A model generated the notes under the pieces. That model was not told the origin of the DNA and searched no databases. It saw nothing but the letters and a program-made list of their open reading frames with translations. A DNA stretch of 32,000 nt from Promethearchaeota archaeon (GTDB lineage: Archaea > Asgardarchaeota > Lokiarchaeia > Sigyniarchaeales > Promethearchaeaceae): assembly GCA_016933055.1 (NCBI GenBank), contig JAFGBS010000002.1:167905-199904 (forward strand). The letters run 5' to 3'. Both the position numbers and the translations under genes were made by a program. Of the stretch, positions 3,088-32,000 are shown in pieces. Position 1 is the stretch's first letter. The number at the start of each line of letters is the position of its first letter.

Positions 3088-4077
3088 TTAAGACAGGATT
3101 TTGGATAAAAATTCTACTACTCTCTGGAATGCTTGATCACTTTCAGGAATATACTCATACAAATTATGGAACACGTGGATCATGTCCTTCCATTTTTTAA
3201 ACTGAATATTTACTCCCGCTTTCTGTGCATTCTCGACGAGTCGTGCAGAATCATCTAATAAAATCTCAAGTTCCCCCGCATCCAGTAATAGAGGAGGAAG
3301 TCCACGAAAATTCCCGTATAAGGGAGATATATACGGATCTTGGGGAGAATGATTTGCGTAATAGGCGGCTGCTAATAGGCGTAAATCTTGTTCGCGTATG
3401 TCGGGATCACTTTGTTTATTCGAGAATAAAGAAGGTCCTGTAAAAGTGAGATCAGTCCAAGGAGAAAATAATATAGTCCCTGCTGGAAGGTTTTTGTCTT
3501 CGTCTCGAAGCTTTAGTAATAGAGCAAGCGCAAGACCTCCTCCAGCCGAACTTCCTGCAATTATGATGGTCTTTGGATCGATATCCATTTGGTCCAGTAG
3601 ATAGTTATATACAAACACTGCATCTTCCAAGGCGGCTGGATAGGGATGTTCTGGAGCATGAGAATAATTAACGCTCAAAATCTTTTTTTTAATGATGGTA
3701 CTTAAGCGAGTAGGAGTTTTCCACCTGGCGTCAAGGGAGCCAAATACATAACCACCTCCGTGAAAATATAAAATCAAGCCAGTTTCATCCGCTTTTTTAG
3801 GTAGAATCCATTCTACAAGTATGGATCCAATGGTTTCGCGCTGAAAGTTTACATTAGAAGGGCGAGGAGTTAAATTTTGCATATAATCGTCCACAAACCG
3901 ATGGGCTTTTACGACAAATAAGGAATCCTCTTGTGTTTGGAACTTTTGGAGCACCTGGTCTAGAGGAATCTTTTCTTGTTCTGCAAATAGCTTTAATCCA
4001 TTATTGAACTGGGAATCTTTTACTTTTAGGGCTTTAGCGAGATCCGCACGTAAATGAGAATAATCTGGTTGTTCCAT
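3088..4077 (-). CDS. Alpha/beta hydrolase fold-3 esterase/lipase (HSL family)
   Basis: HGGG oxyanion motif, APEHPYPAALED, GSSAGG nucleophile elbow, late Asp and His (MIHVF). Confidence 0.9.
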   Translation of the reverse strand: MEQPDYSHLRADLAKALKVKDSQFNNGLKLFAEQEKIPLDQVLQKFQTQEDSLFVVKAHRFVDDYMQNLTPRPSNVNFQRETIGSILVEWILPKKADETGLILYFHGGGYVFGSLDARWKTPTRLSTIIKKKILSVNYSHAPEHPYPAALEDAVFVYNYLLDQMDIDPKTIIIAGSSAGGGLALALLLKLRDEDKNLPAGTILFSPWTDLTFTGPSLFSNKQSDPDIREQDLRLLAAAYYANHSPQDPYISPLYGNFRGLPPLLLDAGELEILLDDSARLVENAQKAGVNIQFKKWKDMIHVFHNLYEYIPESDQAFQRVVEFLSKILS

Positions 4078-18188: not shown

Positions 18189-19340
18189 TTACTTGGGTAT
18201 AAACGGAAAAGAAATCATACTTTGCATGCGAGAGGATTCATACGCAGCCATTACCGCTTCTAAAGCTGCTCTTCCATCATAAATAGTGGGAATCCATTCT
18301 TTCGGAAAGCCTACATCCTCATTCGATCGGTCTAACACATGATTTATAAAACTTCTCACCTGGCGTGCATAGGAAAGATTCCATGGATCTTTCGAACCTC
18401 TTATCATCATCCGAGTGGGGCGATCCGTGATTATGTTCGGGTATAAATACTTGTATACTTTCATAGGTTTTAGTTTAGGTTCAAAGGGAACATCAAATAA
18501 TAGTTTTCCTTTCAAACCGTGTATTCTTCCTTGTTCCTTTCCTGCATGTCTACCCACAAAGTTGTAAGAACGCTCAAATATTGCAGTTGTTCGACTCTCT
18601 TTAAAAGAAAACAATGCGGCCGTGTGATCCTCATATTGATTCGCTGCTTGGAATTTCCGTACTTGAGCAGATACGTTTTTTAATTCTCCAAACCACCAAC
18701 GCAATAAATCTATATAATGGGGACCGTGATCCAAGAAGTCCCCCCCTCCCGAACGTGGATCGGTCAGACGCCATGCTCCCAGTTCCTTCAAGATATCTAT
18801 CCCTAATTTCTTAAAGAATGTTAAACCCTTCTTAATCCATTTTGCATCCAGATCAGGTATGTAATGATACCAATACAGAGAAACATGCACGATCTCACCG
18901 AGTGTTCCCTTCTCAAGGATTTCTTTAATTTTCTGAAATCCTGGATCAAATCGTTTTTGCGTAGCAGTTTGAAAAATAACACCGTTTCGTTCCACTGCCC
19001 GAATCATCTCATCAACGTTTTTCAATGATACAGCCAATGGTTTCTCACAGAGAATGTGTTTCCCATTATTTGCGGCCCTTATCACTTGATCCTTATGAGC
19101 CCAATTGGGAGAACAAATACTTATTGCATCAATCTGGGGATCATCTATAAGTTCATTCGGATCTTGATATTGTTTAACGGGATGATAGAGATTGCTTACT
19201 TTTTTCAGATGATTCGAGTCGGGATCGGCTATTGCATACACTTCTGCTAGAGGAGATTTCGAATACCATGGCAAATGACCGTTTTTTGCCACAATACCAC
19301 AACCGATAACTCCTACTTTAAGTCGGGAATTAGTACTCAT
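18189..19340 (-). CDS. Gfo/Idh/MocA family oxidoreductase
   Basis: KVGVIGCG, GKHILCEKP, GGGDFLDHGPH. Start placed at the second Met (19340). Confidence 0.9.
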   Translation of the reverse strand: MSTNSRLKVGVIGCGIVAKNGHLPWYSKSPLAEVYAIADPDSNHLKKVSNLYHPVKQYQDPNELIDDPQIDAISICSPNWAHKDQVIRAANNGKHILCEKPLAVSLKNVDEMIRAVERNGVIFQTATQKRFDPGFQKIKEILEKGTLGEIVHVSLYWYHYIPDLDAKWIKKGLTFFKKLGIDILKELGAWRLTDPRSGGGDFLDHGPHYIDLLRWWFGELKNVSAQVRKFQAANQYEDHTAALFSFKESRTTAIFERSYNFVGRHAGKEQGRIHGLKGKLLFDVPFEPKLKPMKVYKYLYPNIITDRPTRMMIRGSKDPWNLSYARQVRSFINHVLDRSNEDVGFPKEWIPTIYDGRAALEAVMAAYESSRMQSMISFPFIPK

Positions 19341-19636
19341 ATACAAATATTTTTCGAGGAAAGCAGAAAAAAAGCTTTTCATGTATTTTAGTAAAAATCT
19401 GCACCAAATGGTCGTATGAAGTAATTCTCAAGAATTTTCTCAATTATATTTTTCTAGATCAAATACCACAAGCGTAATATTCACACCTTTACTGTGAATT
19501 ATTGTTAGATTACAGAGACTAGCTGATGCGGAGAAAACCCAATTTTTTTCTTTTTTGTTATGGTTTCATGATTAGGTATTGCGAATTCATGTATATAGTG
19601 AATTTATTAACTTATACCATATAGTAAAGGATTGAA

Positions 19637-21298
19637 ATGAAGCAAGATCAAGAAATCGCACACGAATCAAAAATGATGCCCATCCAGAAAATTGCTGCAA
19701 AAATGGGTATCCCTGAATCGGAAATCGAATATTATGGAGAGTATAAAGCGAAAATCAAAATGGATTTTTGCTTGAAATGCGATGATAGACCGAATGGAAA
19801 ACTAATTTTAGTCTCGGCTATTTCACCAACAAGTGCTGGTGAGGGAAAAACAACTACAACTATTGGACTAGTGGAAGCGTTATGCAAATTGGGTAAAAGA
19901 GCTGCTGGAGCTTTACGGCAACCCTCCTTGGGACCAGTTTTTGGGATTAAAGGAGGTGCAACTGGGGGAGGTCATGCTCAAGTGGTACCAGCTGATGATA
20001 TCAATTTACATTTCACTGGGGATTTTCATGCAATCACATCTGCTCACAATATGTTAACAGCATTACTGGATAATGCAATCTACCAACGTAAAATTGAGAT
20101 CAATCCTAAACGGATTCTTTGGAATCGGGTTTTGGACATCAATGATCGCGCCCTACGCAATATTATTGTGGGCTTAGGCGGACCATTGGACGGGGTTTCT
20201 CACCAATCCAGTTTTGATATTACCGCTGCCTCTGAAATTATGGCAATCTTGTGCTTGTCCAAAAATATCAGTGAACTGAGAGAAAAATTAGGAAATATTA
20301 TATTAGGATATAATTATGGAGGAAAAGCGATCCATGCATCAGATCTGGGAGTAACCGGGGCGATTACAGTTTTGTTGAAAGATGTTATCAAACCAAATTT
20401 GGTTCAAACACTCGAACACAACCCGATTTTTATCCATGGAGGACCTTTTGCAAATATTGCTCAGGGATCCAGTTCAATCATCGCCACCCGCATGGCTTTG
20501 AAATTAAACGATTATGTGGTGACTGAAGCAGGATTTGGTTCTGATTTGGGAGCCGAAAAATTCTTTAATTTGGTATGTCCGTATGGAGGATTTACACCGT
20601 CATTAATGGTTCTTGTGGCAACGATTCGTGCGCTTAAAATGCATGGGGGTGTGAACATGGAGCGTATTAAACAAGAAGATTTGGTAGCTCTCGAGAAAGG
20701 AATGGTAAATCTGGGGCGCCATCTAGAAAATGCTAAGAAATTTGGAATTGATACTGTAGTAGCACTCAACTATTTTCCCTCCGATACAAAAGATGAAATT
20801 GAAATGGTCAGAAACTATTGTAAAGAGAAAGATTTCCCCATAGCAGTTTCCTACGTCTATGAAAAGGGTGGAAGTGGCGGTGAAGAACTTGCGAATATCG
20901 TAATTCAACGCTTGGAAGAAGAGAGAACTCAGTTTAAGTATCTCTATGATTGGAAAGACTCGGTAGAAAACAAAATTAACACCATTGCGAAGGAAATATA
21001 CCGGGCAGAAAAAGTGGAATTTGAAGCTGAAGCCTTGGAAGATCTTCAATTTATCAAGGGGTTGAAACTGTGTGATTTACCAATTTGCATGGCAAAAACT
21101 CAAATGTCCTTTTCGGATGATCCCAACCAATTAGGAGCTCCGACCGGTTTTACCATGAAAGTAAGACGAATTCTTATTGCCGCTGGTGCGGGTTTTCTGA
21201 TCCCGTTGACCGGTAAAATCTTACGAATGCCCGGGTTACCGAAATTCCCTGCTGCGGAATCAATTGATATCGATCATTACGGGCGGATATTCTTTTAA
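19637..21298 (+). CDS. fhs: Formate--tetrahydrofolate ligase
   Basis: SPTSAGEGKTTT, FGIKGGATGGG, HFTGDFHAITSAHN, HGGPFANIAQG, TEAGFGSDLGAEKF, CMAKTQ, MPGLPKFPAA. Confidence 0.97.
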   Translation: MKQDQEIAHESKMMPIQKIAAKMGIPESEIEYYGEYKAKIKMDFCLKCDDRPNGKLILVSAISPTSAGEGKTTTTIGLVEALCKLGKRAAGALRQPSLGPVFGIKGGATGGGHAQVVPADDINLHFTGDFHAITSAHNMLTALLDNAIYQRKIEINPKRILWNRVLDINDRALRNIIVGLGGPLDGVSHQSSFDITAASEIMAILCLSKNISELREKLGNIILGYNYGGKAIHASDLGVTGAITVLLKDVIKPNLVQTLEHNPIFIHGGPFANIAQGSSSIIATRMALKLNDYVVTEAGFGSDLGAEKFFNLVCPYGGFTPSLMVLVATIRALKMHGGVNMERIKQEDLVALEKGMVNLGRHLENAKKFGIDTVVALNYFPSDTKDEIEMVRNYCKEKDFPIAVSYVYEKGGSGGEELANIVIQRLEEERTQFKYLYDWKDSVENKINTIAKEIYRAEKVEFEAEALEDLQFIKGLKLCDLPICMAKTQMSFSDDPNQLGAPTGFTMKVRRILIAAGAGFLIPLTGKILRMPGLPKFPAAESIDIDHYGRIFF

Positions 21299-21439
21299 TA
21301 TAACAGTATTTTCTTTTCTTTTTTTTCACATTTATTTACTCTTTGATCGTTATCTTAACCATTATCCCCCCATAAAACGATTAGTATTTCACAAATCCCA
21401 GAAGAAATAGAAAAACTTCAATCCCTAAAAAAGCTAGAA

Positions 21440-22759
21440 ATGTTTAGTGGTGAGATAACGAATCTTCCAGACAGTATTGGGAATCTGAAATCACTAGAAG
21501 AGCTAAGATTGAGTTTCAACAAGATCACCAATCTCCCAGAATCAATAGGGAATTTACAGATGTTGAAAACTTTAACATTACAAAATAATTTACTTAAAAC
21601 CATTCCCGATACGATTACTAATCTTAAAAATCTGAATTCATTAAACATTGGAAATAACAAAATTAAATGTCTGCCTGAAAATATTGGAAACCTGCAGAAC
21701 TTACAAGCAATTGTTCTGAGTAACAACCCTATTTCTGAAGTACCCAAATCATTTGCAAATCTGAGCAATCTAGAGAGAATTTACATTGAAAAGACAAAAA
21801 TAAACGAACTACCAACCAGAGTGTTGAATCAAAAAATACTTCTTCAGAGAAAATATAAATTCAAGAAATGTAAATCCCCATTATTCGGTATCACAAAATA
21901 TTGCAGTAAATGCGGTCAAGCAAGTGGTATTGAAGACCGTATAGTTGATCTATATTCTGAGACTTTCGCGGATCGACTATTTTCAACAGAAAAACAACTT
22001 TACTTAAGCTTAAATCAAAAACAGCGTGATGGATTTACAATACTCCAATATATGAATAAATCGGATGAAGAATATAACTTAACGACAGCATGGTTCACTG
22101 ATAAAGTTGAATTTGAAAAATCAGTATTCAATATTAACATCTTATTCCAGGAAGGAAAAATTGTAGGGCTTGAATTCAACGATATCTGGGATATCAATAT
22201 CAAATTTTTAAATGCGGCCTTGTGGCATTTTGGTCATATTAAATACTTACTATTGGAAAATATGGGAGTAGATTCGATTCCTGAGCATATTGGGACCTTA
22301 AAACATCTCGAAAAATTGACATTACAATATTTAAGGAATACCAAATTTCCTGATAGTCTTCAAAATCTGGCAAGATTAAAACATTTTACAGTGCATTCCA
22401 GAGGTTTAGATTCGGTACCACAATGGATTTCTGAATTGGTAGAATTGGAAAACCTCGATTTGGGAGACACGGTCTTTATAACCATTCCAAAATCGATACT
22501 TTCGTTGAAAAAACTCAAGATGTTCCGTTTAAGATCAGAACAAGGCTTTACTATTCCACCTGAAATTCAAAAATTGACCGATCTTCGTGAGCTAACCATA
22601 GATGCAACAATTGAAAATGAGGTACCAGAAACAATGAAGAATTTGTCGAATCTCGAAAAACTGAACTTAAAGGGTCTACGTGAAGATTTTCCTGATTGGA
22701 TTGGCGAACTGCCAAATATTAAAGAAGTCACTTCAAGGAAGGGAACGCAATATTTTTGA
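21440..22759 (+). CDS. Leucine-rich repeat protein with internal zinc-ribbon-like segment; appears 5'-truncated
   Basis: Two LRR blocks (LPxSIGNLxxL type) separated by KCKSPLFGITKYCSKCG. The frame is open back to 21359 with another LRR unit but no ATG. Confidence 0.85.
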   Translation: MFSGEITNLPDSIGNLKSLEELRLSFNKITNLPESIGNLQMLKTLTLQNNLLKTIPDTITNLKNLNSLNIGNNKIKCLPENIGNLQNLQAIVLSNNPISEVPKSFANLSNLERIYIEKTKINELPTRVLNQKILLQRKYKFKKCKSPLFGITKYCSKCGQASGIEDRIVDLYSETFADRLFSTEKQLYLSLNQKQRDGFTILQYMNKSDEEYNLTTAWFTDKVEFEKSVFNINILFQEGKIVGLEFNDIWDINIKFLNAALWHFGHIKYLLLENMGVDSIPEHIGTLKHLEKLTLQYLRNTKFPDSLQNLARLKHFTVHSRGLDSVPQWISELVELENLDLGDTVFITIPKSILSLKKLKMFRLRSEQGFTIPPEIQKLTDLRELTIDATIENEVPETMKNLSNLEKLNLKGLREDFPDWIGELPNIKEVTSRKGTQYF

Positions 22760-22760
22760 T

Positions 22761-22880
22761 GGGTATACGTTTCTTTTTTGTTACTTTCGTGCCCACTTCC
22801 TGCTAGTTGGCAGTATAGAATGGTTATAACATCCCATACAGATGAATTCGTATTTGTGTTGTTTTGTATATGTGTTCTTT
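22761..22880 (-). repeat. Copy R7 of the 23S 3'-trailer repeat (most degenerate)
   Basis: GGGTATACGTTT 1 nt after the LRR stop; CCACTTCC..TAGT; CATCCCATACAGATGAA and TGTTGTTTTGTATATGTGTTCTTT resemble 26501-26550. Confidence 0.55.
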
Positions 22881-22920
22881 ACTCTGATGTATTGCTTCTA
22901 AATTTAATAACACAAAACCC

Positions 22921-22947
22921 ATAAGTATTTGTACTACAAATGCTTAT
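22921..22947. promoter_or_regulatory. Inverted repeat upstream of the antitoxin (putative autoregulatory operator)
   Basis: ATAAGTATTTGTA-C-TACAAATGCTTAT: 13-bp arms with one mismatch, ending 19 nt before the ATG. Confidence 0.55.
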
Positions 22948-22966
22948 ATTTGTATTAAGGATCATT

Positions 22967-23269
22967 ATGGCAACAGTGCAAGTACGAATTGATGATGAAG
23001 AAAACAAAGATTTAGATGAGTTAGCAAAAAAATTAGAAATCACCAAATCAGAATTATTACGAAAAATCATCAAACGAGGGAAAAAAGGATTGCTTTTTGA
23101 TGTGTATTTCGAAAAACTTACTAAAAAAGAAATTAGTGTGAGTCGTGCAGCAATAGAAGCGGATTTATCCATCCCCGAATTCATGGAAATGGCAAGAAAA
23201 CGTGGGTATACCTATTTCCAATACGAACCTGAAGAGTTAGACAGGGACTTAGACGCACTTGAAGAGTAG
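22967..23269 (+). CDS. UPF0175-family antitoxin with N-terminal ribbon-helix-helix
   Basis: MATVQVRIDD...KSELLRKII (RHH); EISVSRAAIEADLSIPEFME...YEPEELDRDL. Confidence 0.8.
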   Translation: MATVQVRIDDEENKDLDELAKKLEITKSELLRKIIKRGKKGLLFDVYFEKLTKKEISVSRAAIEADLSIPEFMEMARKRGYTYFQYEPEELDRDLDALEE

Positions 23270-23277
23270 ATATAATT

Positions 23278-23826
23278 ATGAATAACCCTTCCTCAGATCT
23301 TGATTCCGAACCAAAAACTCATTTACAACGATATTTCTTTGATTCTTCCGGTATTTTTGCCTTAATTGATTGCGGCTACTTTCATCGATTCTGTGAAATT
23401 ATTACGAATATTTGTATTACTCCTCAAATTTTTACGGAACTAACGCAAAAAAAAAACTTGGCGAAAAAAATAATATCCGAAAGTTTAACTGCTGGAAAAA
23501 TTACGCTTGTCAAATATAAATCTGGAGAAAAAGAAAAATGGGACAACTATTATGCATTGGGCTTGCACACGGGAGAGATTTCGATACTTCTCACTGCACA
23601 TAAAAAATTTGATATTGTGGTATTCGACGAGGTTGTAGCACGTTCGGTAGCCAGAGCTGAAGGATTTCGACTATCAGGATTACTCGGGCTTGTATTGAAT
23701 TTCAAAAAAACCGGGAAAATGCCCAAAAAAGAAGCACTCTCTTTCTTAAGCGCCATAAACCAAACGAACTTCCGGATGAGCTCTAGTCTCTACGAATCTA
23801 TGCTGCGAAGATTATCTGAAGAATAA
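23278..23826 (+). CDS. PIN-domain toxin (DUF3368/VapC-like)
   Basis: FFDSSGIF, GEISIL, VFDE..AR..A...G...GLLGLV. Confidence 0.8.
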   Translation: MNNPSSDLDSEPKTHLQRYFFDSSGIFALIDCGYFHRFCEIITNICITPQIFTELTQKKNLAKKIISESLTAGKITLVKYKSGEKEKWDNYYALGLHTGEISILLTAHKKFDIVVFDEVVARSVARAEGFRLSGLLGLVLNFKKTGKMPKKEALSFLSAINQTNFRMSSSLYESMLRRLSEE

Positions 23827-23844
23827 AGAAAGTCGGAAGAAGGA

Positions 23845-24000
23845 GGGTAGACTGAACGTTTGTTTCTTTAAGTAAGTTTTGTATCACCGGTAATCACCCG
23901 TTGTCTGGTTTTTGCTATCCATCTCACACCTACGATACTTCCATCCTAGTCGTATCCACGAATTTCGGTTGTAATTGCGTAGATACGCGTGCCCCACCTG
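23845..24000 (-). repeat. Copy R6 of the 23S 3'-trailer repeat (may extend to about 24160)
   Basis: GGGTAGACTGAACGTTT 23845-23861, CATCTCAC 23920-23927, ACTTCC..TAGTC, GCGTGCCCCA 23987-23996, in the same order as 31261-31390. Confidence 0.75.
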
Positions 24001-24227
24001 ATATTGGTACTTGTATGCTATTTCCTAAAGGATATTAGCACCCCAATAGATGAATACGCTGTGTGCTTTTCTCTCATCCTCACGAATGATTGAAAGGTGC
24101 TTACAGTTTGGTTGTTTAACTTTGGTTGTGTTGTTTTAGGATGGTTGAACACTCACAGAAATGGAAAATTAACCACATTTATTTTGCTGCTTGAAATATT
24201 ATTATTAGGAGAAATCAGTGATTCTAC

Positions 24228-26381
24228 ATGAAATATAGTGTTAGGAAAGAGAAGAAATTTTTTATAATTATTATTTTATGGATGTGCTTTTCTCCCTTTC
24301 TCTGTTATGATAAAGTAATGTTTCCTTCTAGTAGCTCCAGATATGATATCCCGAAAACAAGTCAAGTGTACGATAATACTTCCTGCTTCATATACAGCAC
24401 TTTTATTGGAGGTTCGGAGTTAGAAATTGGAAGTGGAATAGCAATTGATCTCCAAGGAGCTTCCTATATAACTGGGGAAACAGAATCGAATGATTTCCTA
24501 ACTTATTCTGCTTTGGATGACACCTTTAATGGAAGTTCTGATGGTTTTATAACAAAATTGAACCCTGAAGGTACGATTAATTACAGTACATTTATTGGCG
24601 GAAACAACCAGGATGGAGGTACAGATATTTTGATTGATGAATCTGGTTATTGTTTTATAGCTGGAACGACGAAATCTGAAGATTTTCCCATTTTGAATGC
24701 TTTTGATTCCTCATTAGGAGCAGCATGGGAAGGAATTTCTGATGGATTCCTCACAAAATTAAATCCGGATGGATCACTTAATTTCAGTAACTATCTAGGA
24801 GGAACATCAGATGAATTAGATCTTCATATCGCCGTAGATGATTCAGGTGCTTGTTTCATTACAGGGATTACCCATTCTTTGAATTTCCCTTTACAAAATG
24901 CTTATGATGAGATTCTTGAAAATCGTGAAGTGTTTGTAATGAAGTTTAATCCAGATGGATCAATAAATTTCAGCACCTATTTAGGAGGAAATCATCATGA
25001 GGACGCTTATGGAATTGTTGCTGATTCTAATGGAGGATGTTATGTCACTGGAAGAACTTTCTCTGATGATTTTCCGACGTTGAATGAAATAGATGATGAG
25101 CAGGATGGAGTGACTGATGCATTTCTTGCAAGATTTAATCAAAATGGCTCAATGATTTTTTGCACCTTAATAGGAGGTGGATCCGAAGATGAGGCTAATG
25201 GAGTTGCATTGGATAATATTGGTAATTGCTACATTATGGGGGATACGGATTCTACTAATTTCCCTTTACAAAATCCGATTGACCATTCTTTAAGCGGGGA
25301 AAGGGATTGTTTCATATCCAAATTTGGACCGTATGGGGATTTACTCTATAGTACATACTGGGGTGGGGATTCACATGAATATGGAACGGAAATATTCGTT
25401 GATAGTAATAATTCATATTATATAACGGGACGATCCTCTTCAAATGATTTTCCCGAGCAATTTGGATTTAGTAGGGAGGAAGACAGTGAGTCTCGATTCT
25501 TTGTCACTAAGTTCAATTCTGATGATACTCTTAATTATAGTTACAAATTTGGAGGGTCTTCATCTGAAGAGCCATGTGATATAAAAATTTATAATAACGG
25601 AGTATGTTACATTGGTGGATTTACCTCTTCAATTGATTTTCCTTTAAAAAATGCCTTTGATACTTCGAATGTTTATTACGAAGCGTTTTTATGTGAAATA
25701 TATGCACCTTCAGGGGATGAAGACGGAGATGGGATACCCAATTATTGGGAGTATCAAAAAGGAATGAATTTATCCTATGCTCTTGATGCTTCTTATGATT
25801 TTGATCGAGATGGTTTGACAAATCTTCAAGAATACCTTTCAGGAACTGATCCTTATGATGATGATACGGATAATGATGGTATAAATGACTTAAATGACCA
25901 TTATCCCAACTCTTTTATGCGACCTGTGGGATGGATTATTATAATTTCATCGATTAGTGTCGTAGGGTTATCAATTAGTATTGTCTTGATCAAACCACTC
26001 CATAAATTTCGTCAATATAAAGTTAGGAAATCCTTGGAGGCTATTCAATTGGAAATGGATGACCTTGATTATGATAGCGCAGAAAAAAAAATTGAAGAAA
26101 CCCTCCCAAAGATTTCAGAATGTGGCAATAAAGACTTGTACTCCAAAGCAAAGACTATGAAAAAATCTTGTGAATATAATCAAATGTTTCTATCGAAATT
26201 GAATGACCACAGAAAGTGGATCGATGAAAGAAATTTCCAGAGTGCACATGAGAATTTAGTCCACCTTTTAAAGCAAATTCATCAACCTGAATATGTTGAG
26301 ATTGTTGACAAAAAAATCGAATCTGAAATCACCGACCTTTTGAAAATGGTTTCAGAAAAATTAGAAAATGAAGAGAAATGA
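24228..26381 (+). CDS. SBBP-type seven-repeat beta-propeller surface protein with DxDxDG Ca-binding repeats, TM helix and cytoplasmic tail
   Basis: Seven YSTFIGG-like units; DEDGDGIPNYWE, DFDRDGLT, DTDNDGIND; N-terminal signal and TM WIIIISSISVVGLSISIVLI. Confidence 0.85.
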   Translation: MKYSVRKEKKFFIIIILWMCFSPFLCYDKVMFPSSSSRYDIPKTSQVYDNTSCFIYSTFIGGSELEIGSGIAIDLQGASYITGETESNDFLTYSALDDTFNGSSDGFITKLNPEGTINYSTFIGGNNQDGGTDILIDESGYCFIAGTTKSEDFPILNAFDSSLGAAWEGISDGFLTKLNPDGSLNFSNYLGGTSDELDLHIAVDDSGACFITGITHSLNFPLQNAYDEILENREVFVMKFNPDGSINFSTYLGGNHHEDAYGIVADSNGGCYVTGRTFSDDFPTLNEIDDEQDGVTDAFLARFNQNGSMIFCTLIGGGSEDEANGVALDNIGNCYIMGDTDSTNFPLQNPIDHSLSGERDCFISKFGPYGDLLYSTYWGGDSHEYGTEIFVDSNNSYYITGRSSSNDFPEQFGFSREEDSESRFFVTKFNSDDTLNYSYKFGGSSSEEPCDIKIYNNGVCYIGGFTSSIDFPLKNAFDTSNVYYEAFLCEIYAPSGDEDGDGIPNYWEYQKGMNLSYALDASYDFDRDGLTNLQEYLSGTDPYDDDTDNDGINDLNDHYPNSFMRPVGWIIIISSISVVGLSISIVLIKPLHKFRQYKVRKSLEAIQLEMDDLDYDSAEKKIEETLPKISECGNKDLYSKAKTMKKSCEYNQMFLSKLNDHRKWIDERNFQSAHENLVHLLKQIHQPEYVEIVDKKIESEITDLLKMVSEKLENEEK

Positions 26382-26385
26382 ATTA

Positions 26386-26663
26386 GGGAAGTAAATTGAA
26401 CATTTAGTTAGAGACGCCTCACATAAGATACTCCCAATCGGCTGATTGTAGTATACTGCGTGCCCCATCCTGCTATTTGGTAGTAAATGATTTGATATCG
26501 CATCCCATACGATGAAATACTTCATTTATGTTGTTGTATATGCGTTCTTTTTGCTTTTTGGATATACTGCTTTTCTGTCTTGCCGCAACTATGTCACAGC
26601 AAAACTATCGAAACGCACAGCGAACACAGATCAGACCGTGACCACTCAAAGCATGAACCCAAA
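26386..26663 (-). repeat. Copy R5 of the 23S 3'-trailer repeat (near full length)
   Basis: GTAAATTGAACATTT, GCGTGCCCCA 26458-26467, GATATCGCATCCC; 26617-26661 matches 31542-31585 at 41 of 45 columns. Confidence 0.85.
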
Positions 26664-26954
26664 TTATAATTTTAAGTTACGGCTACCATGTATTATTATT
26701 TTGATGTAAATTTTATCTTCTTGTTCTACATATTGGTAAATTAACCTGTAGGACTGAATAATAATTTCTCGATCTTCTTCATTCGTAGATTCGGGAACCT
26801 TTCTACCCATTTTCGGAAATCGTTCGAGATTTAAAACTGAATCAAAGACTTTTTCAAAAAAATTCGATGCATATTGGGATGAAGCATTTGATAGATATGC
26901 CAAAATTTGATCGAAGTCAAACTCTGCATCCTTTGTCCATTCTATGGAAACCAT
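26664..26954 (-). CDS. RelE/ParE-family toxin
   Basis: IEWTKDAEFDFDQI...LERFPKMGRKVPE...REIIIQSYRLIYQ...IIHGSR. Confidence 0.88.
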   Translation of the reverse strand: MVSIEWTKDAEFDFDQILAYLSNASSQYASNFFEKVFDSVLNLERFPKMGRKVPESTNEEDREIIIQSYRLIYQYVEQEDKIYIKIIIHGSRNLKL

Positions 26955-27148
26955 TTCTTCTTTAACTTCTCCATAACTTCATCATGTGGAATAGTTTCTC
27001 CGGAAGAAATTTGGTGTTCGGCTTTTTGTAATTTCTGTATCACAAATAAATGGTATTGAATATCATCCAACGTAACATCATTAGGAAGATTTTCAATTAA
27101 ATCAATAGCTATTTTTTTGGAGTTTACTGAATTACTCATTTCGTTCAT
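26942..27148 (-). CDS. Antitoxin partner of the RelE/ParE toxin
   Basis: LIENLPNDVTLDDIQYHLFV...GETIPHDEVMEKLKKKW; overlaps the toxin start by 13 nt. Confidence 0.8.
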   Translation of the reverse strand: MNEMSNSVNSKKIAIDLIENLPNDVTLDDIQYHLFVIQKLQKAEHQISSGETIPHDEVMEKLKKKWFP

Positions 27149-27241
27149 ACATATATAATGAAAATCCCCATATTAACTACTATCTTTTTTACAATTTAAT
27201 TAAATCAGAATTTTGAGTAATTCAAACGAATGTAAAAAGAG

Positions 27242-27260
27242 GAGAGTAGACTGAACGTTT
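27242..27260 (-). repeat. Copy R4 of the trailer repeat (terminal motif only)
   Basis: GAGAGTAGACTGAACGTTT directly abutting a minus-strand stop at 27262-27264. Confidence 0.7.
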
Positions 27261-27261
27261 T

Positions 27262-28176
27262 CTAATTAGAAACAGCTCCGAAATTTGGTCGTTTAACCAT
27301 ATCAATTATGAAGGAAATCACCACTAACACACCTGCAGTAAAAGTGGTCAATATACTCGTTATAAGTAAAAAATCATTAGGAAAACTATGCTTTAAGAAG
27401 TTGAGAATTGGATACGAAGGTGTATAGATAATCTCCGCTGAAAATATTATAAAGGCTGTTAACGAACAACCCAATATCAGTACGGAAAAGAAAATCGAGT
27501 TCCTACTCGAAATCGTGGTTTAAATAAATCTGAAAAAAAATGAACAACTGTAAGTCCAGCAAAAAGGAACGCACAGAAAAATAGTAGCAAAATGATAATC
27601 TCATATGTGTGCAACCCAGGAAGATCAGGATCGATCGTCTGAAGAAGAAGAGTAGAACCTGAAGCTCCATAATGCTTAACCGCACGAACACAACTAGTTG
27701 AACGATATAAGACTGACTTCGTTCTTGGTGGGGAACTGCATTTTATTCCATTTCTAGGAATGTCTGTCGGGTAATTGTCAAAATTCATGATAGTATCATC
27801 TTTATTTTTTTATAGACATCGAGTAGTAAAAATACTACTTTGAAATATTATACCGATTGATCATCTTCGTATTCCATTTGATCAAGGAGAGTATGTGATA
27901 ATCATGAGTACCAATGTAGGGATATCTTGTTCCCACTGTATAAGTGCCTTAAGAATCCCCCCAAATATTGCAGAAGTACCCCACAACAGGGTAAGTTAAA
28001 CTCCATTCATATTTCATATAGTTGTTTAATCCAGATGAATTAGGGAGAAGATCTCCTTTTGGACCTTGGTTAAGATAGTCATACTGTAGCTCTAAGGCTT
28101 GACCACAGACCATTTTTAAGCTGAATACCAGGGCTAGAACACATGGATATATGGTAGGGGTTTTTTTCATCCGCAT
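27262..28176 (-). pseudogene. Fragmented secreted/membrane protein gene
   Basis: Signal-peptide ORF 28176-27949 continues in frame past TAA (GTYTVGTRYPY...), stops again, then hydrophobic ORFs 27788-27477 and 27474-27262 follow in shifted frames. Confidence 0.5.
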
Positions 28177-28478
28177 AATCCGAATCTTACCAAATGAAAG
28201 GATACCTAAGTATAAAAAGAATATACATCAATTTCTATGTTAATCATGGGATCCTTTGTAGGATTCCACCCTTTTTCTGGATTGGTAGGTTTCTCGACTC
28301 ATGAATGATGATTATTGAATCGACCCGTGATGATTATGTATACATCTATGGATCTCTATAGATCACAAATGATTGATGATTGATGATATTTTTACAATTA
28401 TCGATGCATACCGAGTAGATTAGCAACTACTCGCTTAGTGGATAAGATCGGTAAAAGGAAGTAATATAATAAAAGAAA

Positions 28479-28583
28479 GGGGGGGTAGGCTGAACATTTC
28501 GTTCAAGTTATCTTTTCTTTCGATCTCACAATCATTGGATGTAAGTAGAAAAGGGGGAGTACTGCATCCCCATCCTGCTATTT
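28479..28583 (-). repeat. Copy R3 of the 23S 3'-trailer repeat
   Basis: GGGGGGGTAGGCTGAACATTT 28479-28499, GATCTCAC, and TACTGCATCCCCATCCTGCTATTT similar to 26454-26478. Confidence 0.8.
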
Positions 28584-28587
28584 TTTA

Positions 28588-29070
28588 TTATACTAAAGGC
28601 TGATACTTCCATCCTTTCTTTTTCCCAATCAAATACAATATATACATTGCAAGCACAGAAAATACGAATAGGGAAATAATGTGAAACCATAGTCTTGATT
28701 TTCCCATAATAATATCTGAAAATGGTGCCCAAGATGCATTTATTAGAGTATACGAAAATATTAGCCAGAATATAAGACCACCTATATAGCCGAAACAACC
28801 GATGAAAACGATTTTATAAATTAACTGAGGATTTTTCACTTTTCTGATAAGAACAACTAAAATAATCATTAAAGGGTAAAAAAGCATGAATCCTATGGTA
28901 AATCCGAGATTGTTGATCTCGTAATAATATAAGATCCAAAGAAACAGACTATTAGCGATGATTCCGCCGATATTTACCCATAACCAATTTTCTTTAAACT
29001 TTTGAAAGAATTTTTTAAAAGAATTAACTTTATCCGAATGATTGTCTGTTGACTCTGTCACGAGTAACAC
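28588..29070 (-). CDS. Four-TM hypothetical membrane protein
   Basis: 160 aa, four hydrophobic helices, basic C-terminal tail; the stop lies about 5 nt from repeat R3. Confidence 0.75.
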   Translation of the reverse strand: MLLVTESTDNHSDKVNSFKKFFQKFKENWLWVNIGGIIANSLFLWILYYYEINNLGFTIGFMLFYPLMIILVVLIRKVKNPQLIYKIVFIGCFGYIGGLIFWLIFSYTLINASWAPFSDIIMGKSRLWFHIISLFVFSVLAMYILYLIGKKKGWKYQPLV

Positions 29071-29291
29071 TTCTTTTTGACAATTTCCAAAAGCTGCACT
29101 TTATTATTTAAGTGTATGGATTTAACAAATTGTTGAATAAGTATATCTTTTCTTTCCATCTTAACATATCATGATACTTCCATTGGTTATCATCATGTAA
29201 ATAAATGGTAGTTATGCATACCCCAACCTATTGATTGATCATTAATGTGGATATTGGTAGCCAATAAATTATAAACATAAAACAATATATT

Positions 29292-29303
29292 ATGTAATTA
29301 CAT
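29292..29303. promoter_or_regulatory. Perfect 12-bp palindrome upstream of the MazE-like gene (putative operator)
   Basis: ATGTAATTACAT ending 9 nt before ATG 29313. Confidence 0.5.
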
Positions 29304-29312
29304 TGTAATTAT

Positions 29313-29570
29313 ATGGAACCGGTGAAAATTAAACTCATAAAAATAGGAAATTCCCGCGGCATCCGTATCCCGAAATATATCTTGGAGCTTTTAAATCTAG
29401 ATGAAGAAATTGAATTAATTATAGATGAAGAGGCAAAAGAATTGATTATTCGGTCTAATAAACCACCTAGAATTCATTGGGATAAAGCATTTAGACAAAT
29501 GCATGAAAATCAGGACGATACCTTACTAATAGATGATGCATTAGACATCGATTTTGACGATGATTGGTGA
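29313..29570 (+). CDS. mazE: AbrB/MazE/SpoVT-family antitoxin
   Basis: KLIKIGNSRGIRIPKYILE and acidic C-terminus; overlaps the toxin start. Confidence 0.88.
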   Translation: MEPVKIKLIKIGNSRGIRIPKYILELLNLDEEIELIIDEEAKELIIRSNKPPRIHWDKAFRQMHENQDDTLLIDDALDIDFDDDW

Positions 29571-29902
29571 TACCATTGGTAACGATCAATCAATATTCGA
29601 TTTATTTAGTGAATTTAGATCCCACAATAGGACATGAAATACAGAAAATTCGCCCTTGTTTGATAATTTCCCCAGATGAAATGAATCACAATATTGCTAC
29701 TGTGATAATTGCACCGTTAACTTCGAAATCTCGGGATTATCCGACTCGAGTCGAAATACAACTCCAAGGAAAAAATGGTTGGATTGTTTTAGATCAGATT
29801 CGGACCATTGATAAAAGTCGAATCATCCGAAAAGTGGGAAAAATTTCACCACAACAAATTCAGAAGGTAAAATCAGTCATTAAAGAGATGCTAGTGGATT
29901 AG
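29564..29902 (+). CDS. mazF: MazF/PemK-family endoribonuclease toxin
   Basis: VNLDPTIGHEIQKIRPCLIIS, APLTS, VLDQIRTIDKSR; the real start may be TTG 29576. Confidence 0.92.
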   Translation: MVIPLVTINQYSIYLVNLDPTIGHEIQKIRPCLIISPDEMNHNIATVIIAPLTSKSRDYPTRVEIQLQGKNGWIVLDQIRTIDKSRIIRKVGKISPQQIQKVKSVIKEMLVD

Positions 29903-29909
29903 AAGTAAT

Positions 29910-30033
29910 GGGGTAGGCTGAACGTTTGTATTGGTATTTTGATTCGATTCGATATCGTTATCTGTTTGCTCATCTCACGAATAGTCCACTTCCGGGTAGT
30001 CTTCTATTGTTGATGTAGACGTATTTTGGTGTT
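29910..30033 (-). repeat. Copy R2 of the 23S 3'-trailer repeat (closest to the resident copy)
   Basis: Aligns to 31261-31379 with 9 substitutions (all transitions) and 2 indels by manual count; a 37-nt block is identical (29968-30004 = 31314-31350). Confidence 0.95.
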
Positions 30034-31147
30034 TGACTCTTGTGGTTACCCATAACAATAGAGAGATTATCGCGATTGATAAAGACAAACTAATTCCTAA
30101 AAATCCTGATATTGAACGATCGGAAGAAAATGTCTGTCCAAATTGTACATCGATTTCAAATCCGTTAAAATCCTTGAAATCTTCAATATTAATTAAATAG
30201 GTATGAAAAAACCATCTTTCTTGGTTATTATATTCATCATAATAAGGTAAGTAATAATCCATATCGCCTGACATATCCTCTATAACACTATGCCAAACAA
30301 ATTCTGAGATTTGGTTTTCATCTGGCGGACAGAATTTTCTCTGAAAGGTTGAATATCCAGTAGAGCTATGATCGTTAACTCTTGTCCATAGAGAGACATA
30401 AAACATCATTTTCATATAATAAAGAGCAGAGCAATTTATGGGAGCTTCTCTGATAGTGGTAGTTATAATTTTTCCAAATGCAAAATAATCCGAAATATTT
30501 GGCCAAAACACTTCTGTTCTCAATTGATGATAAGTTTTGTTTTCTCCATCGGAAGTCTCAATATTAATCCCAAACTCGAAATGATTTGGATGGGTAGTTA
30601 GTATTGGAACTTTGCCGAATCTGGAAGGTAGTTTCGCATGTTCACCATAACTTATTGATTCCCAAATGGAGCAGTCAATGTGCTGAATTTTAACCTCTGC
30701 ATAATCAATTTGATTAGATAAATTATAAACTAAGAATTCTTCAAAAAATACCCGTGTTCCGTTGGGTATTGAAATATTCACGTATCTCACGTAAGTATTT
30801 ATGGTATTATTGACCAACCAGGTAAATTGCACTCCCAAGGGTGTGGAAGTACTATTTAATCCATAATCTTTATGATGCACTTCCAATGCATAGCGGATTT
30901 CATAAAAAATTCCTGTAACATTTGTTATTTCGATAGCTGTAACATTAAGTATCGCTCCGGTATACGAAGAATACATACCCCATCGTGTTTCATTGAAAAT
31001 AATCCGTTGAATATTTTCATCGATTGCACTAATGTTAATTAAAGAATTTAGCCGATTTTCAGAATTTTCAATAGCAACAGCAGAAAACGTCGAAAATAAG
31101 ATTATAATCAGCGTACTCCACATAAACCATTTTTGTGTTCTTTTCAC
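29975..31147 (-). CDS. Secreted/surface protein with N-terminal signal and C-terminal TM anchor; last ~20 codons encoded by repeat R2
   Basis: Signal MKRTQKWFMWSTLIIILFSTFSAVA, Asn-rich body, TM FLGISLSLSIAIISLLLWV, tail HQNTSTSTIEDYPEVDYS inside R2. Confidence 0.85.
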   Translation of the reverse strand: MKRTQKWFMWSTLIIILFSTFSAVAIENSENRLNSLINISAIDENIQRIIFNETRWGMYSSYTGAILNVTAIEITNVTGIFYEIRYALEVHHKDYGLNSTSTPLGVQFTWLVNNTINTYVRYVNISIPNGTRVFFEEFLVYNLSNQIDYAEVKIQHIDCSIWESISYGEHAKLPSRFGKVPILTTHPNHFEFGINIETSDGENKTYHQLRTEVFWPNISDYFAFGKIITTTIREAPINCSALYYMKMMFYVSLWTRVNDHSSTGYSTFQRKFCPPDENQISEFVWHSVIEDMSGDMDYYLPYYDEYNNQERWFFHTYLINIEDFKDFNGFEIDVQFGQTFSSDRSISGFLGISLSLSIAIISLLLWVTTRVKHQNTSTSTIEDYPEVDYS

Positions 31148-31256
31148 AAGTATTCAACCTACACAAAGATTGGTTTATCTTTTGGCTAATCCCATATTTA
31201 AATAGATACATAGCGCTATTGCCTTAGATTATGAGAATGAAAAAAATAGATAAAAA

Positions 31257-31590
31257 GGGGGGGTAGGCTGAACGTTTGATATTGATATTTCGATTCGGTA
31301 TCGTTACCTGCTCGCTCATCTCACGAATAGTCCACTTCCGGGTAGTCTTCCATTGTTGGTGTAGACATGTTTTGGTGTTGGCGTGCCCCATTACCTGTTT
31401 GGTTCTGGTTTGTAGATATGCATCCCGTTGATGCTGCACTTTGCTTGTGTTGGTTCATTCGGTGCATTATGTTCCAGATACCTTGATTCTTGCTATCGTG
31501 CTACGTTGAATGATTTTTCATTCATTGACACATAACAGCAGACAGCGGACACAGATCAGACCGTGCCGCTCAAAGCCTGAACCCATATGC
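31257..31590 (-). other. 23S rRNA 3' trailer (resident copy R1) ending in a C7/T-rich putative terminator
   Basis: Directly follows the 23S 3' end; minus strand ends ...AAACGTTCAGCCTACCCCCCCTTTTTATCTATTTTTTT; no 5S or tRNA recognisable. Confidence 0.75.
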
Positions 31591-31607
31591 CCCCGTTCCA
31601 CTCACAC

Positions 31608-32000
31608 GCTTGAACGGTTGAAAACGGCGGGCTAAATACGTCGGCCGTAGCCTTCGCACGTACACCCCCGTCTCACCTAACGGGTCTTTTACCCGAGTTC
31701 TCGTCACCCACCCGCCCCCATAGTCGCCTATTGAGGCTCGTCATCGGACGCGTCATTTTGAACAGCCATGGTTCCTCATACTCTGGAAAGGGTACTTCTC
31801 CACTTACTGTAAAGCGGATCGGCTCCGCAACGCACCCTGTGATGGGTGAATGGGTGTTTATTTTCGGGGCATATTTCGCGCTTAGATGCTTTCAGCGCTT
31901 ATCATTTGGAGCGTAGCTGCTTGGCTTACCCTGTCGGATAACCAATAGACCAGAGGCTCCCACGCGTTGTTCCTCTCGTACTGCACGCGTGCTGCCCTCA
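31608..32000 (-). rRNA. rrl: 23S rRNA, 3'-terminal ~390 nt (continues beyond window; 3' end approximate)
   Basis: Sarcin-ricin loop AGUACGAGAGGAAC (31982-31969), GAUAAGCGCUGAAAGCAUCUAAGCGCGAAA, archaeal-type ...UUUAGCCCGCCG terminus. Confidence 0.97.

Follow-up and report, generated by a model that had tools for sequence, protein, structure and literature searches.

The stretch analysed here (the window; 32,000 nt, from contig JAFGBS010000002.1 of a Promethearchaeota archaeon) ends inside the genome's single 23S rRNA gene. Within 10 kb downstream of this gene lie seven copies of the 23S 3' trailer, all on the same strand. Each separates a small accessory-gene block (cargo) from the next; their 5' ends differ and an oligo-T end is common to all. 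Outward from the rRNA gene, the features are as follows.

31598-32000, minus strand: 3' end of the only 23S rRNA gene (Rfam RF02540 model positions 2732-2987); the remainder of the same gene continues at contig C6:1-2702
31255-31597, minus: master trailer (3' external transcribed spacer), contiguous with the 23S gene; its processing-stem strand (31542-31565) pairs with the leader at C6:2766-2788, and its fixed end (31255-31280) is a C-run plus oligo-T on the rRNA strand
29975-31147, minus: cargo, 390-aa ORFan with an N-terminal signal or transmembrane segment and a C-terminal transmembrane anchor; its final 20 codons fall in c29911
29901-30039, minus: copy c29911, the 3' 125-130 nt of the trailer, type A, 88-91% identical to the master
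29313-29902, plus: cargo, MazE antitoxin and MazF/PemK toxin pair (Pfam PF04014, PF02452); the MazF stop codon lies a few nt ahead of the c29911 fixed end
28588-29070, minus: cargo, 160-aa ORF with no assigned function, stopping at the truncated end of c28483
28469-28590, minus: copy c28483, ~115 nt, motif end 20/20 as in the master
27262-28176, minus: cargo, three small ORFs without family assignment (70, 103 and 75 aa); the stop codon of the 70-aa ORF lies inside the 20-nt copy c27244
27241-27263, minus: copy c27244, the fixed-end motif alone, ~23 nt
26942-27148, minus: cargo, 68-aa putative antitoxin beside ParE
26664-26954, minus: cargo, ParE toxin (Pfam PF05016), its stop abutting the c26391 5' end
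26376-26665, minus: copy c26391, full-length orphan trailer, type B, starting 10 nt past the 23S-end position; stem strand kept at 23/24 and 20/23, middle ~64% or unalignable
24228-26381, plus: cargo, 717-aa SBBP beta-propeller repeat protein (Pfam PF06739)
23829-24124, minus: copy c23845, nearly full length (profile positions 55-301), without the stem, motif exact
23278-23826, plus: cargo, DUF3368 (PIN-like) toxin candidate (Pfam)
22940-23269, plus: cargo, RHH/UPF0175 antitoxin (Pfam)
22761-22901, minus: copy c22761, the most degenerate
21440-22759, plus: LRR protein (Pfam LRR_14 and others), the last gene ahead of the array's far end
19637-21298, plus: formate-tetrahydrofolate ligase (Pfam PF01268), marking the core-gene boundary, directly after which synteny with the congeneric genome G001 stops

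The 390-aa ORFan matched no Pfam or PHROG family and had a single weak relative among 40 genomes.

Anatomy and distribution of the copies

The genuine trailer is the copy at 31255-31597, which adjoins the 3' end of the 23S gene (31598-32000, minus strand). The fixed-end motif TAGRCTGAACRTTT has five exact matches in the window (23848, 27247, 28486, 29914 and 31264). When up to two mismatches were allowed, seven matches were found against 1.17 expected, including one at 26392 and one outside the array, at 3198. The only additional exact match in the genome is at C17:280392. At one motif position, the three rRNA-proximal copies have a derived G, and the distal copies, the C17 and C9 copies and the real trailer of a relative have A.

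An nhmmer profile built from all copies was run against the whole 3.76-Mb genome. In the array it matched the master, c29911, c28483, c26391, c23845 and c22761; the 20-nt copy at 27241-27263 is below the length that the profile can detect. Its only matches off the array were C9:33279-33639 and C17:280254-280424, together with the complementary 23S leader; trailer copies thus total nine, seven of them at one locus. Extra copies of the 16S trailer were sought and not found.

These searches bear out a sequence-only reading of this DNA, which had described seven polar copies of the trailer downstream of the 23S gene, with the same ordered blocks following the motif. Its copy lengths roughly agree with ours (~23, 115, 125, 140, 290 and 289 nt, against 343 nt for the master), except that c23845 is nearly full length and not about 155 nt. 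The decay that it saw from the nearest to the farthest copy exists as a rough gradient that is not monotonic: c23845 has an exact motif and the nearer c26391 does not, and the farthest copy, c22761, is closest to c26391 (78% over 96 nt). Its expectation that copies lie only downstream of the 23S gene fails for the two on C9 and C17.

Gene ends follow the copies closely, at the distances originally reported. Five copies sit directly after the stop codon of a co-oriented gene. On the plus strand, the LRR (22759), PIN-like (23826), SBBP (26381) and MazF (29902) genes stop 1-19 nt before a fixed end. Stops on the minus strand coincide with truncated copy ends (ParE, 26664; 160-aa ORF, 28588; 70-aa ORF, 27262), and the 390-aa ORF terminates 60 nt within c29911.

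Leader pairing and mixed ancestry

Pairing of the master with its own leader gave a predicted gain of -52 kcal/mol, compared to about -13 kcal/mol for shuffled sequences. Every orphan copy was also predicted to pair with the 23S leader (-22 to -38 kcal/mol versus -8 to -13 for shuffles). Type A copies favoured the leader of this genome (G000), and type B copies showed no such preference. In the orphans c26391 and C9, the stem strands are 93-100% identical and the middles less than 65%. Such uneven conservation fits copies that would have diverged as working trailers in separate lineages and not the neutral decay of a local duplicate.

The copies were then compared with L052, the resident trailer of a related organism, contiguous with that organism's own 23S gene. 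Both c26391 (score 77.5 versus 62) and c23845 (46 versus 37) matched L052 better than their own master, in a comparison that the sequence-only reading had suggested for distal copies. Site patterns were L052-like versus master-like at 37 versus 14 sites for c26391 (p=0.002) and at 39 versus 15 for c23845 (p=0.0015), in short, indel-rich alignments with similar rates assumed, where a faster-changing master or selected orphans would mimic the result. By these comparisons, the copies appear to be more than decaying duplicates, two distal ones being nearer to a relative's working trailer than to their own master. Furthermore, c28483 looks like a hybrid, with a master-like motif end and an inner part resembling type B (c26391). 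The 3' half of the 23S gene gave no clear mosaic signal.

A similar pattern was found in another genus, where an orphan of G013 is 59% identical to the G013 master and 67-70% identical to trailers of the congener G010; the G013 master is the sequence least similar to this orphan. The two species have a distal LRR gene in common and differ in the cargo nearest the 23S gene. Extra trailer copies were present at about a quarter of 20 surveyed 23S ends, and the same design, with unrelated trailer sequences, recurs in other genomes of the order, including the closed genome G010. This recurrence in relatives supports the sequence-only reading. In family f3 (G019, G025 and G026), orphan starts agree within ~5 nt, ~9 nt before the 23S end, and the full-length orphans C9 and c26391 of G000 start 2-3 nt apart. 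The array of G032 has variable 5' ends that reach at least 140 nt into the 23S gene. In G019, a perfect 127-nt repeat flanks a lone 568-aa gene that was not found in congeners, and this may be a recent example of block addition. A second copy of the 390-aa or the 568-aa cargo protein was sought in the respective genome, with no match.

Possible routes of block addition

The array marks the 3' end of the 23S rRNA gene as a gene-insertion site in repeated use, of a kind so far known mainly for tRNA genes. In our preferred reading, which we regard as about equally likely to be right or wrong, incoming DNA with its own 23S end and trailer was added beside the 23S gene, anchored by homology, and displaced the old trailer. 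The stretch would then be a hotspot for accretion, situated at the 3' end of the 23S transcription unit. In each event, foreign DNA would join directly behind the 23S gene, carrying a 23S end and a trailer of its own and, behind these, one to a few accessory genes. The previous trailer, usually cut on its 23S-proximal side, would move outward with all downstream DNA, and repeated events would leave a roughly chronological row of ex-trailer and cargo blocks. The route could be homologous recombination in the highly conserved 23S gene (or the trailer), with the far side joined non-homologously or by microhomology, i.e., homology-facilitated illegitimate recombination, for which an element-encoded recombinase would be unnecessary. 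Later recombination between trailer copies may have reshuffled or deleted blocks. Remnants may be kept because their oligo-T end would terminate cargo genes reading into them.

Because neither a donor nor an empty site or population variant turned up, we infer the direction and mechanism of these events. Both the derived G in the proximal copies and a distal LRR gene common to congeners whose proximal cargo differs fit addition at the proximal end, a part of the earlier proposal; the similarity gradient is only rough. The first model of that proposal, each block being a donor's trailer plus the donor's genes, is strengthened by two observations: distal copies resemble the resident trailer of a relative more than they do the master, and the G013 orphan resembles G010 trailers more than G013's own. 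Variable 5' ends, reaching into the 23S gene in G032, are expected of random far-side joints. The purely illegitimate joint of that model does not predict that several relatives' copies start at one preferred point at the 23S end; these common starts, like those of C9 and c26391, are expected of a site-specific process. Also, the C9 and C17 copies cannot come from 23S-anchored recombination. To our knowledge, neither DNA uptake nor homology-facilitated illegitimate recombination has been demonstrated in Asgard archaea. Overall, the earlier interpretation is partly supported; the anticipated variants gaining or losing blocks were not identified, nor was an enzyme or a donor.

The serious rival to homology-anchored addition, possible though rather doubtful, is site-specific integration by a trans-acting integrase, as at tRNA/tmRNA genes. 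Small integrative or cis-mobilisable elements would carry an attachment site mimicking the 23S end and trailer, and a recombinase acting in trans (from a virus or plasmid, or an Xer-type host enzyme) would insert the element, regenerate the trailer and displace the old one; integrase genes would be missing because the cassettes never carried one or lost it. The pattern seen here, direct repeats of the 3' portion of a stable-RNA unit whose intact copy stands at one end, is the classical signature of tRNA-gene islands. The shared orphan starts in family f3 and in G000 and the perfect repeat around a single gene in G019 point the same way, and attachment sites carried by elements could account for trailers of foreign ancestry too. 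However, no integrase was found in or near any array examined: the contig of the window has none, neither C28 nor the surroundings of the C9 and C17 copies encode a tyrosine recombinase, and in the array genomes G025, G026 and G032 the only tyrosine recombinase match was XerA-sized (314-326 aa). Copies of 20 to 340 nt in G000, and copies reaching into the 23S gene in G032, leave no common crossover point. IMG/VR exact-pattern scans gave chance 18-mer matches only, and the copies showed no conserved core of inverted repeats.

Another route is duplication in situ. At the rRNA terminator, which is transcribed very strongly, forks would stall or DNA would break, and repair by template switching would copy ectopic DNA and return to the trailer at differing upstream positions, duplicating it around the captured DNA; every copy would then be a snapshot of the local master. 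This would account for the lack of a recombinase, for variable re-entry and for an end that is always at the terminator. The derived G of the three proximal copies and the perfect G019 repeat agree with this. We nevertheless consider it unlikely, as distal copies resemble the trailer of another organism more than they do the local master, the G013 orphan is least like its master, and near-intact functional blocks beside unalignable sequence are not predicted by neutral decay of snapshots. The two cargo proteins tested have no second genomic copy either.

Alternatively, the trailer might be a small RNA derived from the 3' external transcribed spacer, or a termination or processing module, kept or spread by selection. 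The blocks conserved among orphans, the TATA-like box ~25-30 nt upstream of the 5' end of the full-length C9 copy and the five copies right after a co-oriented stop codon would suit such a module. It is improbable, given that the copies lack a consensus structure and covariation, have only a modest fold z-score (-2.5), belong to no Rfam family, are truncated to very unequal lengths (down to 20 nt) and number nine in the genome, seven of them in one locus.

Even less probable is an RNA-mediated route, where 3' spacer RNA released between the processing cut and the terminator, possibly joined to mRNA, was reverse transcribed and recombined into the chromosome. Copy boundaries do match RNA landmarks, with the 3' end at the terminator and the C9 and c26391 5' ends 2-4 nt from a bulge predicted on the trailer side of the leader-trailer helix, and the genome has one reverse transcriptase gene. 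That gene is 400 kb off, on C6, and the copies cluster co-oriented beside their source and are not dispersed; G032 copies include 23S sequence, and the family-f3 boundaries appear to lie at the 23S end and not at a bulge, with the corresponding conserved GGTTCAGG helix ~25 nt further downstream.

An artefact, be it misassembled rRNA flanks, suggested by a contig end inside 23S, where short-read assemblies commonly break, or a MITE or terminator scattered through the genome, can practically be dismissed: the C6 leader of the lone 23S gene pairs with the master trailer, unitigs of the source run cover 19000-27183 and 27157-29997 without differences and cross most copies, an independent run from a second study contains identical pieces, the closed G010 has the same design, and the profile search excludes a dispersed element, having found just two further copies (C9 and C17).

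Relation to known systems

A search of the published literature found no description of such an array behind a 23S gene. Islands and cis-mobilisable elements accrete in tandem at tRNA/tmRNA 3' ends, including archaeal 'gene capture' (She et al. 2001, cited in PMC8371274). As there, an intact stable-RNA unit at one end is followed by same-direction partial 3' copies and accessory blocks such as toxin-antitoxin pairs, the newest block presumably beside the gene. Unlike there, the target is the 23S rRNA end with its transcribed spacer, the repeats are long, at 20-340 nt, and differ in their 5' ends, and the arrays examined have no integrase in or near them. A 2021 review of archaeal tyrosine recombinases nowhere mentions rRNA.

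Homology-facilitated illegitimate recombination (de Vries & Wackernagel 2002, PMC122324; Prudhomme et al. 2002, PMC122325; via PMC3646047) resembles the proposed route in its one-sided homologous anchor and non-homologous far joint, which add foreign DNA beside the anchor with no dedicated recombinase, and variable truncation of resident sequence is expected. In contrast to our case, it is known from laboratory transformation of bacteria. It is not known to have been described in archaea or as a process that builds polar arrays of several blocks behind an rRNA gene, and it does not predict preferred boundaries at the 23S end.

The likeness to integrons and CRISPR arrays drawn by the sequence-only reading holds as an analogy of layout only. 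Integrons, which are reported in Archaea too (Ghaly et al. 2022, PMC9668308), likewise have a fixed platform followed by small cassettes separated by related recombination-site-like repeats, with frequent toxin-antitoxin cargo and an order that may record insertion time. Their defining features were looked for and are absent: the array has no IntI and no attC-type folded palindromes, its cargo genes occupy both strands and have intergenic regions of their own, and its repeats are collinear rRNA-spacer fragments. CRISPR arrays also grow in a polar manner at the leader-proximal end, duplicating the resident repeat with each insertion; here, the repeat lengths are inconstant, cas genes are uninvolved and the 'spacers' are kilobase gene blocks.

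Copies of the 23S trailer and the genes between them

Rfam searches of the window matched only the 23S rRNA gene, with the last 256 positions of the archaeal model at 31598-32000 (minus strand, gathering thresholds), where the contig ends; the remaining part of the gene forms the start of contig C6. The source genome (G000) has one 23S gene and separate 16S and 5S genes. Since this single 23S gene ends at 31598 and is contiguous with 31255-31597, those 343 nt are its true 3' trailer (here named the master). The trailer is not itself a 5S gene, because that gene lies at C27:169297-169416. Within the trailer, 31542-31565 forms the complement of C6:2766-2788 in the 23S leader, and a co-fold of leader and trailer predicts a long processing helix. 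Furthermore, the reverse complement of the leader (C6:2765-2950) matches the trailer profile over ~150 positions (E = 1e-7), which indicates a leader-trailer helix much longer than the 23-nt stem.

Concordant inventories came from BLAST, from pairwise alignment and from a profile search (nhmmer) built on all copies. The rRNA strand carries seven copies at 22761-31597, namely, the master, contiguous with the 23S gene, and six partial copies downstream (orphans, named here by position, e.g., c26391). All share their 3' end, where a C-run precedes oligo-T on the rRNA strand (the fixed end), and the lengths of the orphans are set by differing 5' ends (about 23, 115, 125, 140, 290, and 289 nt). Each copy is collinear with the 343-nt master sequence or a part of it. 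A 14-mer, in which a sequence-only reading of this DNA had recognized the repeat, does occur as five exact matches in the window; a single further exact match exists in the whole 3.76-Mb genome, on C17. When up to two mismatches are allowed, the number of matches in the window rises to seven (1.17 expected), including one at 3198 that is not part of the array. The genome-wide profile search proposed by the same reading yielded nine copies in all, seven of them at one locus, a total that excludes a MITE or a generic dispersed terminator. The sole remaining profile match in the genome was the complementary 23S leader. No terminal inverted repeats were visible in alignments of the copies, and no extra copies of the 16S trailer or the 23S leader were found elsewhere in the genome.

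Trailer copies outside the array and genes beside them
C9:33279-33639, full-length copy
C17:280254-280424, 170-nt copy
C9:32270-33166 and C17:279536-280258 (loci L004 and L005), PEMT/ICMT-like membrane methyltransferase genes

The full-length orphan trailer on C9 (locus L048, C9:33279-33760) is distant from any rRNA gene. Over the 22 nt at its 23S-proximal end it does not differ from the master, and a TTATATAA box is located ~25 to 30 nt upstream on the sense strand. This copy may be transcribed on its own as a small RNA, or it may be what remains of a second 23S locus that was lost. Both outside copies adjoin paralogous methyltransferase genes (37% identity, E = 6e-34), one of which lies downstream of its copy, while the other reads into its copy.

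Within the array, the copies separate blocks of unrelated genes.

Blocks of the array, outward from the 23S gene
Block 1, 390-aa membrane-anchored ORFan
Block 2, MazEF and a 160-aa ORF
Block 3, three small ORFs
Block 4, ParE with a small partner
Block 5, SBBP repeat protein
Block 6, RHH/DUF3368 pair
Block 7, LRR protein, followed by the core gene for formate-tetrahydrofolate ligase

Both strands carry cargo genes, which are grouped in twos or threes and have intergenic regions of their own; their base composition is not distinctive (0.31 to 0.36 G+C; genome, 0.353). As described from the sequence alone, plus-strand cargo units stop shortly before the repeat motif, and minus-strand genes stop at or inside the truncated end of a copy. 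The proposed polarity, with copies decaying away from the rRNA gene, held in part: the three 23S-nearest copies have a G in common in the motif, where the distal copies, those on C17 and C9 and the trailer of a related organism (contig L052) carry an A, but the gradient was otherwise not monotonic. This distribution of G and A fits younger proximal blocks.

The outer border of the array was compared with the congeneric genome G001 (contig C58 versus window positions 19637-21298). Behind the ligase gene, G001 has 17 kb orthologous to C17:190034-172820 of the source genome. Since these orthologues sit on C17 in the source genome, synteny breaks exactly at the start of the array, and its outer border is a rearrangement breakpoint. 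The orthologous 17-kb stretch adjoins a gene for a corrinoid iron-sulfur-protein-like product.

Ancestry of the copies and recurrence in related genomes

An exact-pattern scan of metagenome contigs revealed one true relative, L052, which carries the 23S gene of a related organism (87% identical) with its own trailer. The contig begins exactly at the fixed end, and hence no cargo is visible. Its trailer has the stem, several internal blocks and the fixed-end motif in common with that of the source genome. The stem strand matches at 23/24 and 20/23 positions in c26391 and at 19/20 and 22/22 in the C9 copy, and the middle parts of both are <65% identical or unalignable; conservation among the copies of the source genome is thus uneven in the same manner as against the L052 trailer. 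In alignments that are short and rich in indels, c26391 and c23845 scored better against the L052 trailer than against their own master, and three-way site patterns favored the grouping with L052 (37 versus 14 and 39 versus 15). The copies can accordingly be sorted into two classes, type A (the master, c29911, and the copies on C9 and C17) and the L052-like type B (c26391, c22761, and c23845); c28483 looks like a hybrid of both. Every orphan is predicted to pair with the leader better than shuffled sequences do. Type A copies are predicted to pair far better with the leader of the source genome than with that of L052, and type B copies show no preference in these predictions. A test for a mosaic 23S gene detected no shift in relative similarity across its last 1.5 kb.

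A comparable pattern was found in the genus g6, where the orphan copy of genome G013 is only 59% identical to its own master versus 67 to 70% to the trailers of G010. The two genomes have a distal LRR gene in common, and their 23S-nearest cargo is different. On each of these points of ancestry, drawn from short and indel-rich alignments, local duplication followed by neutral decay, at least as a simple model, would predict the opposite.

The feature is real and recurrent. G010, a closed genome of 4.3 Mb from a different genus in the same family, contains three extra same-strand copies of its trailer 4.6, 19.7, and 23 kb downstream, with a common oligo-T end, differing 5' ends and LRR genes in between; the trailer sequence itself is unrelated to that of the source genome. 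We surveyed 20 real 23S ends from 16 genomes of the order, each with at least 4 kb of downstream sequence, and found at least one extra trailer copy at 5 of them and a weak copy at a sixth. A single 568-aa gene of G019 is bracketed by a perfect repeat of 127 nt, which starts ~9 nt short of the 23S end and extends to the terminator. This gene was not found in the congeners of G019, and its homologues in other genomes have no flanking trailer copies; an empty-site comparison with the congener G033 met sequence too divergent beyond 50 nt of the trailer. A stretch of 15 kb in G032 (C101:1404-16898, loci L079 and L075) contains at least nine orphan copies, each consisting of a 23S 3' fragment plus trailer, with no 23S gene within at least 12 kb of sequence. 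Here too, the copies share their 3' end and differ at the 5' end, and one retains at least 140 nt of 23S. The 5' ends range over 20 to 340 nt in the source genome and G032; they coincide within a few nucleotides in G019, G025, and G026 and between two full-length orphans of the source genome.

Possible routes of gene capture and comparison with known systems

The best fit to these data would be that incoming DNA with its own 23S end and trailer joins behind the 23S gene and displaces the resident trailer, anchored by recombination in the conserved 23S and closed on the far side by a non-homologous joint. Such events would account for the variable 5' ends (23S fragments included), the apparent foreign ancestry and the absent recombinase. 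The preferred boundaries at the 23S end in G019, G025, G026, and the two full-length orphans are not explained by anchored recombination, and neither are the copies on C9 and C17. Because these observations are left unaccounted for, the main rival, a site-specific recombinase acting in trans, remains a strong alternative. No recombinase domain was found among the ORFs of the array and no PF00589 tyrosine recombinase on its contig, C28; the four PF00589 matches of the genome are all on other contigs (C30, C33, C17:817 kb, and C8). The 390-aa protein was considered as a hidden integrase and rejected, as it is a membrane-anchored ORFan without a Pfam, PHROG, or Atlas family. Exact-pattern scans gave only chance 18-mers in viral contigs and one chance match in genome contigs. 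Template switching at the terminator, an RNA-mediated route (the single reverse transcriptase gene of the genome is remote from the array) and a selected RNA or terminator module (a consensus fold of the copies contained no pairs, i.e., no consensus RNA structure) are less likely than either 23S-anchored recombination or a recombinase in trans.

The array departs from integrons in all three features tested. Integrons encode an IntI-type tyrosine recombinase beside the array, which is lacking here; their attC sites are imperfect palindromes with conserved R and L boxes that form hairpins, whereas alignments of our copies show no inverted-repeat core; and their cassettes are mostly promoterless single ORFs in one orientation served by a platform promoter, in contrast to cargo on both strands. 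Tandem islands at tRNA and tmRNA genes are closer in layout, since there too the repeats derive from the 3' portion of a gene or unit for a stable RNA, which itself stands intact at one end of the row. Such islands also have a crossover point or att core common to all repeats, a feature on which the 5' ends described above give a mixed picture. However, the target here is an rRNA spacer instead of a tRNA, the repeats are long and variably truncated, and an integrase, present in at least the recent elements of such islands, is absent from the arrays examined here. A review of archaeal tyrosine recombinases makes no mention of rRNA targets, and full-text literature searches returned no description of an rRNA-trailer array. 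Accretion of an RNA-gene-anchored island with the 23S spacer as its target appears to be undescribed.

On a broader scale, and as a tentative proposal that we regard as possible rather than probable, the 23S 3' spacer may serve as the recombination site of a gene-capture system, undescribed to date, that is widespread among Asgard archaea and other prokaryotes. This system would lack a cis-encoded integrase, act via host recombination on the rRNA anchor or via an unrecognized trans-acting enzyme reading the spacer, and provide a platform on which accessory and toxin-antitoxin cassettes are captured and put in order. Should foreign genes regularly enter at the end of the 23S transcription unit, DNA transfer across species may be anchored by rRNA genes, whose sequences are the best conserved of those that distant lineages have in common. 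This would be relevant to how Asgard archaea gained large accessory and bacterial-like gene sets, and the arrays would form a dated record of acquisition readable in metagenomes. Since contigs break at the 23S end, such islands are under-sampled in metagenome-assembled genomes. The choice between recombinase-free capture and a yet unrecognized integrase is testable.

Read-level variants and predicted folds of the trailer

Misassembly of several rRNA flanks had been named as a possible source of the array. In the probable source run, unitigs correspond to 19000-27183 and 27157-29997 without a difference and thus cross most of the copies, and an independent run from a different study and habitat contained identical short contigs, including 30389-31421, so that the assembly was upheld in both. 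At 90% likeness, the source run had no contig over 30284-31151, and few extended into 29998-30283; several loose ends (e.g., at 30211) had no match in the genome. Two metatranscriptome runs gave coverage of the 23S only.

In the source run, a contig of low depth leads from 28810 back to 24094; the 27 unrelated nucleotides at the joint match nothing in the genome. Position 24094 is the truncated end of c23845, and 28810 lies inside the 160-aa ORF. At 90% likeness, this contig may represent a rearranged variant or another organism. Two contigs of the independent sequencing run X2 have ends at trailer copies: one (26380-26665) matches the extent of c26391, to within a few nucleotides at the distal end, and the other (29538-29910) terminates exactly at the fixed end of c29911. 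These ends could reflect alternative neighbors in that population or merely low coverage.

Rfam covariance models gave no match to the trailer at E ≤ 10. In the predicted minimum-energy fold of the trailer RNA, 31255-31280, with the fixed-end motif AGCCUACCCCCCCU, pairs with 31574-31597, i.e., with the 23S end and the start of the trailer (GGGGG..GGGU..AGGCU). The C9 copy preserves this predicted pairing between fixed end and 23S end by G-U changes.
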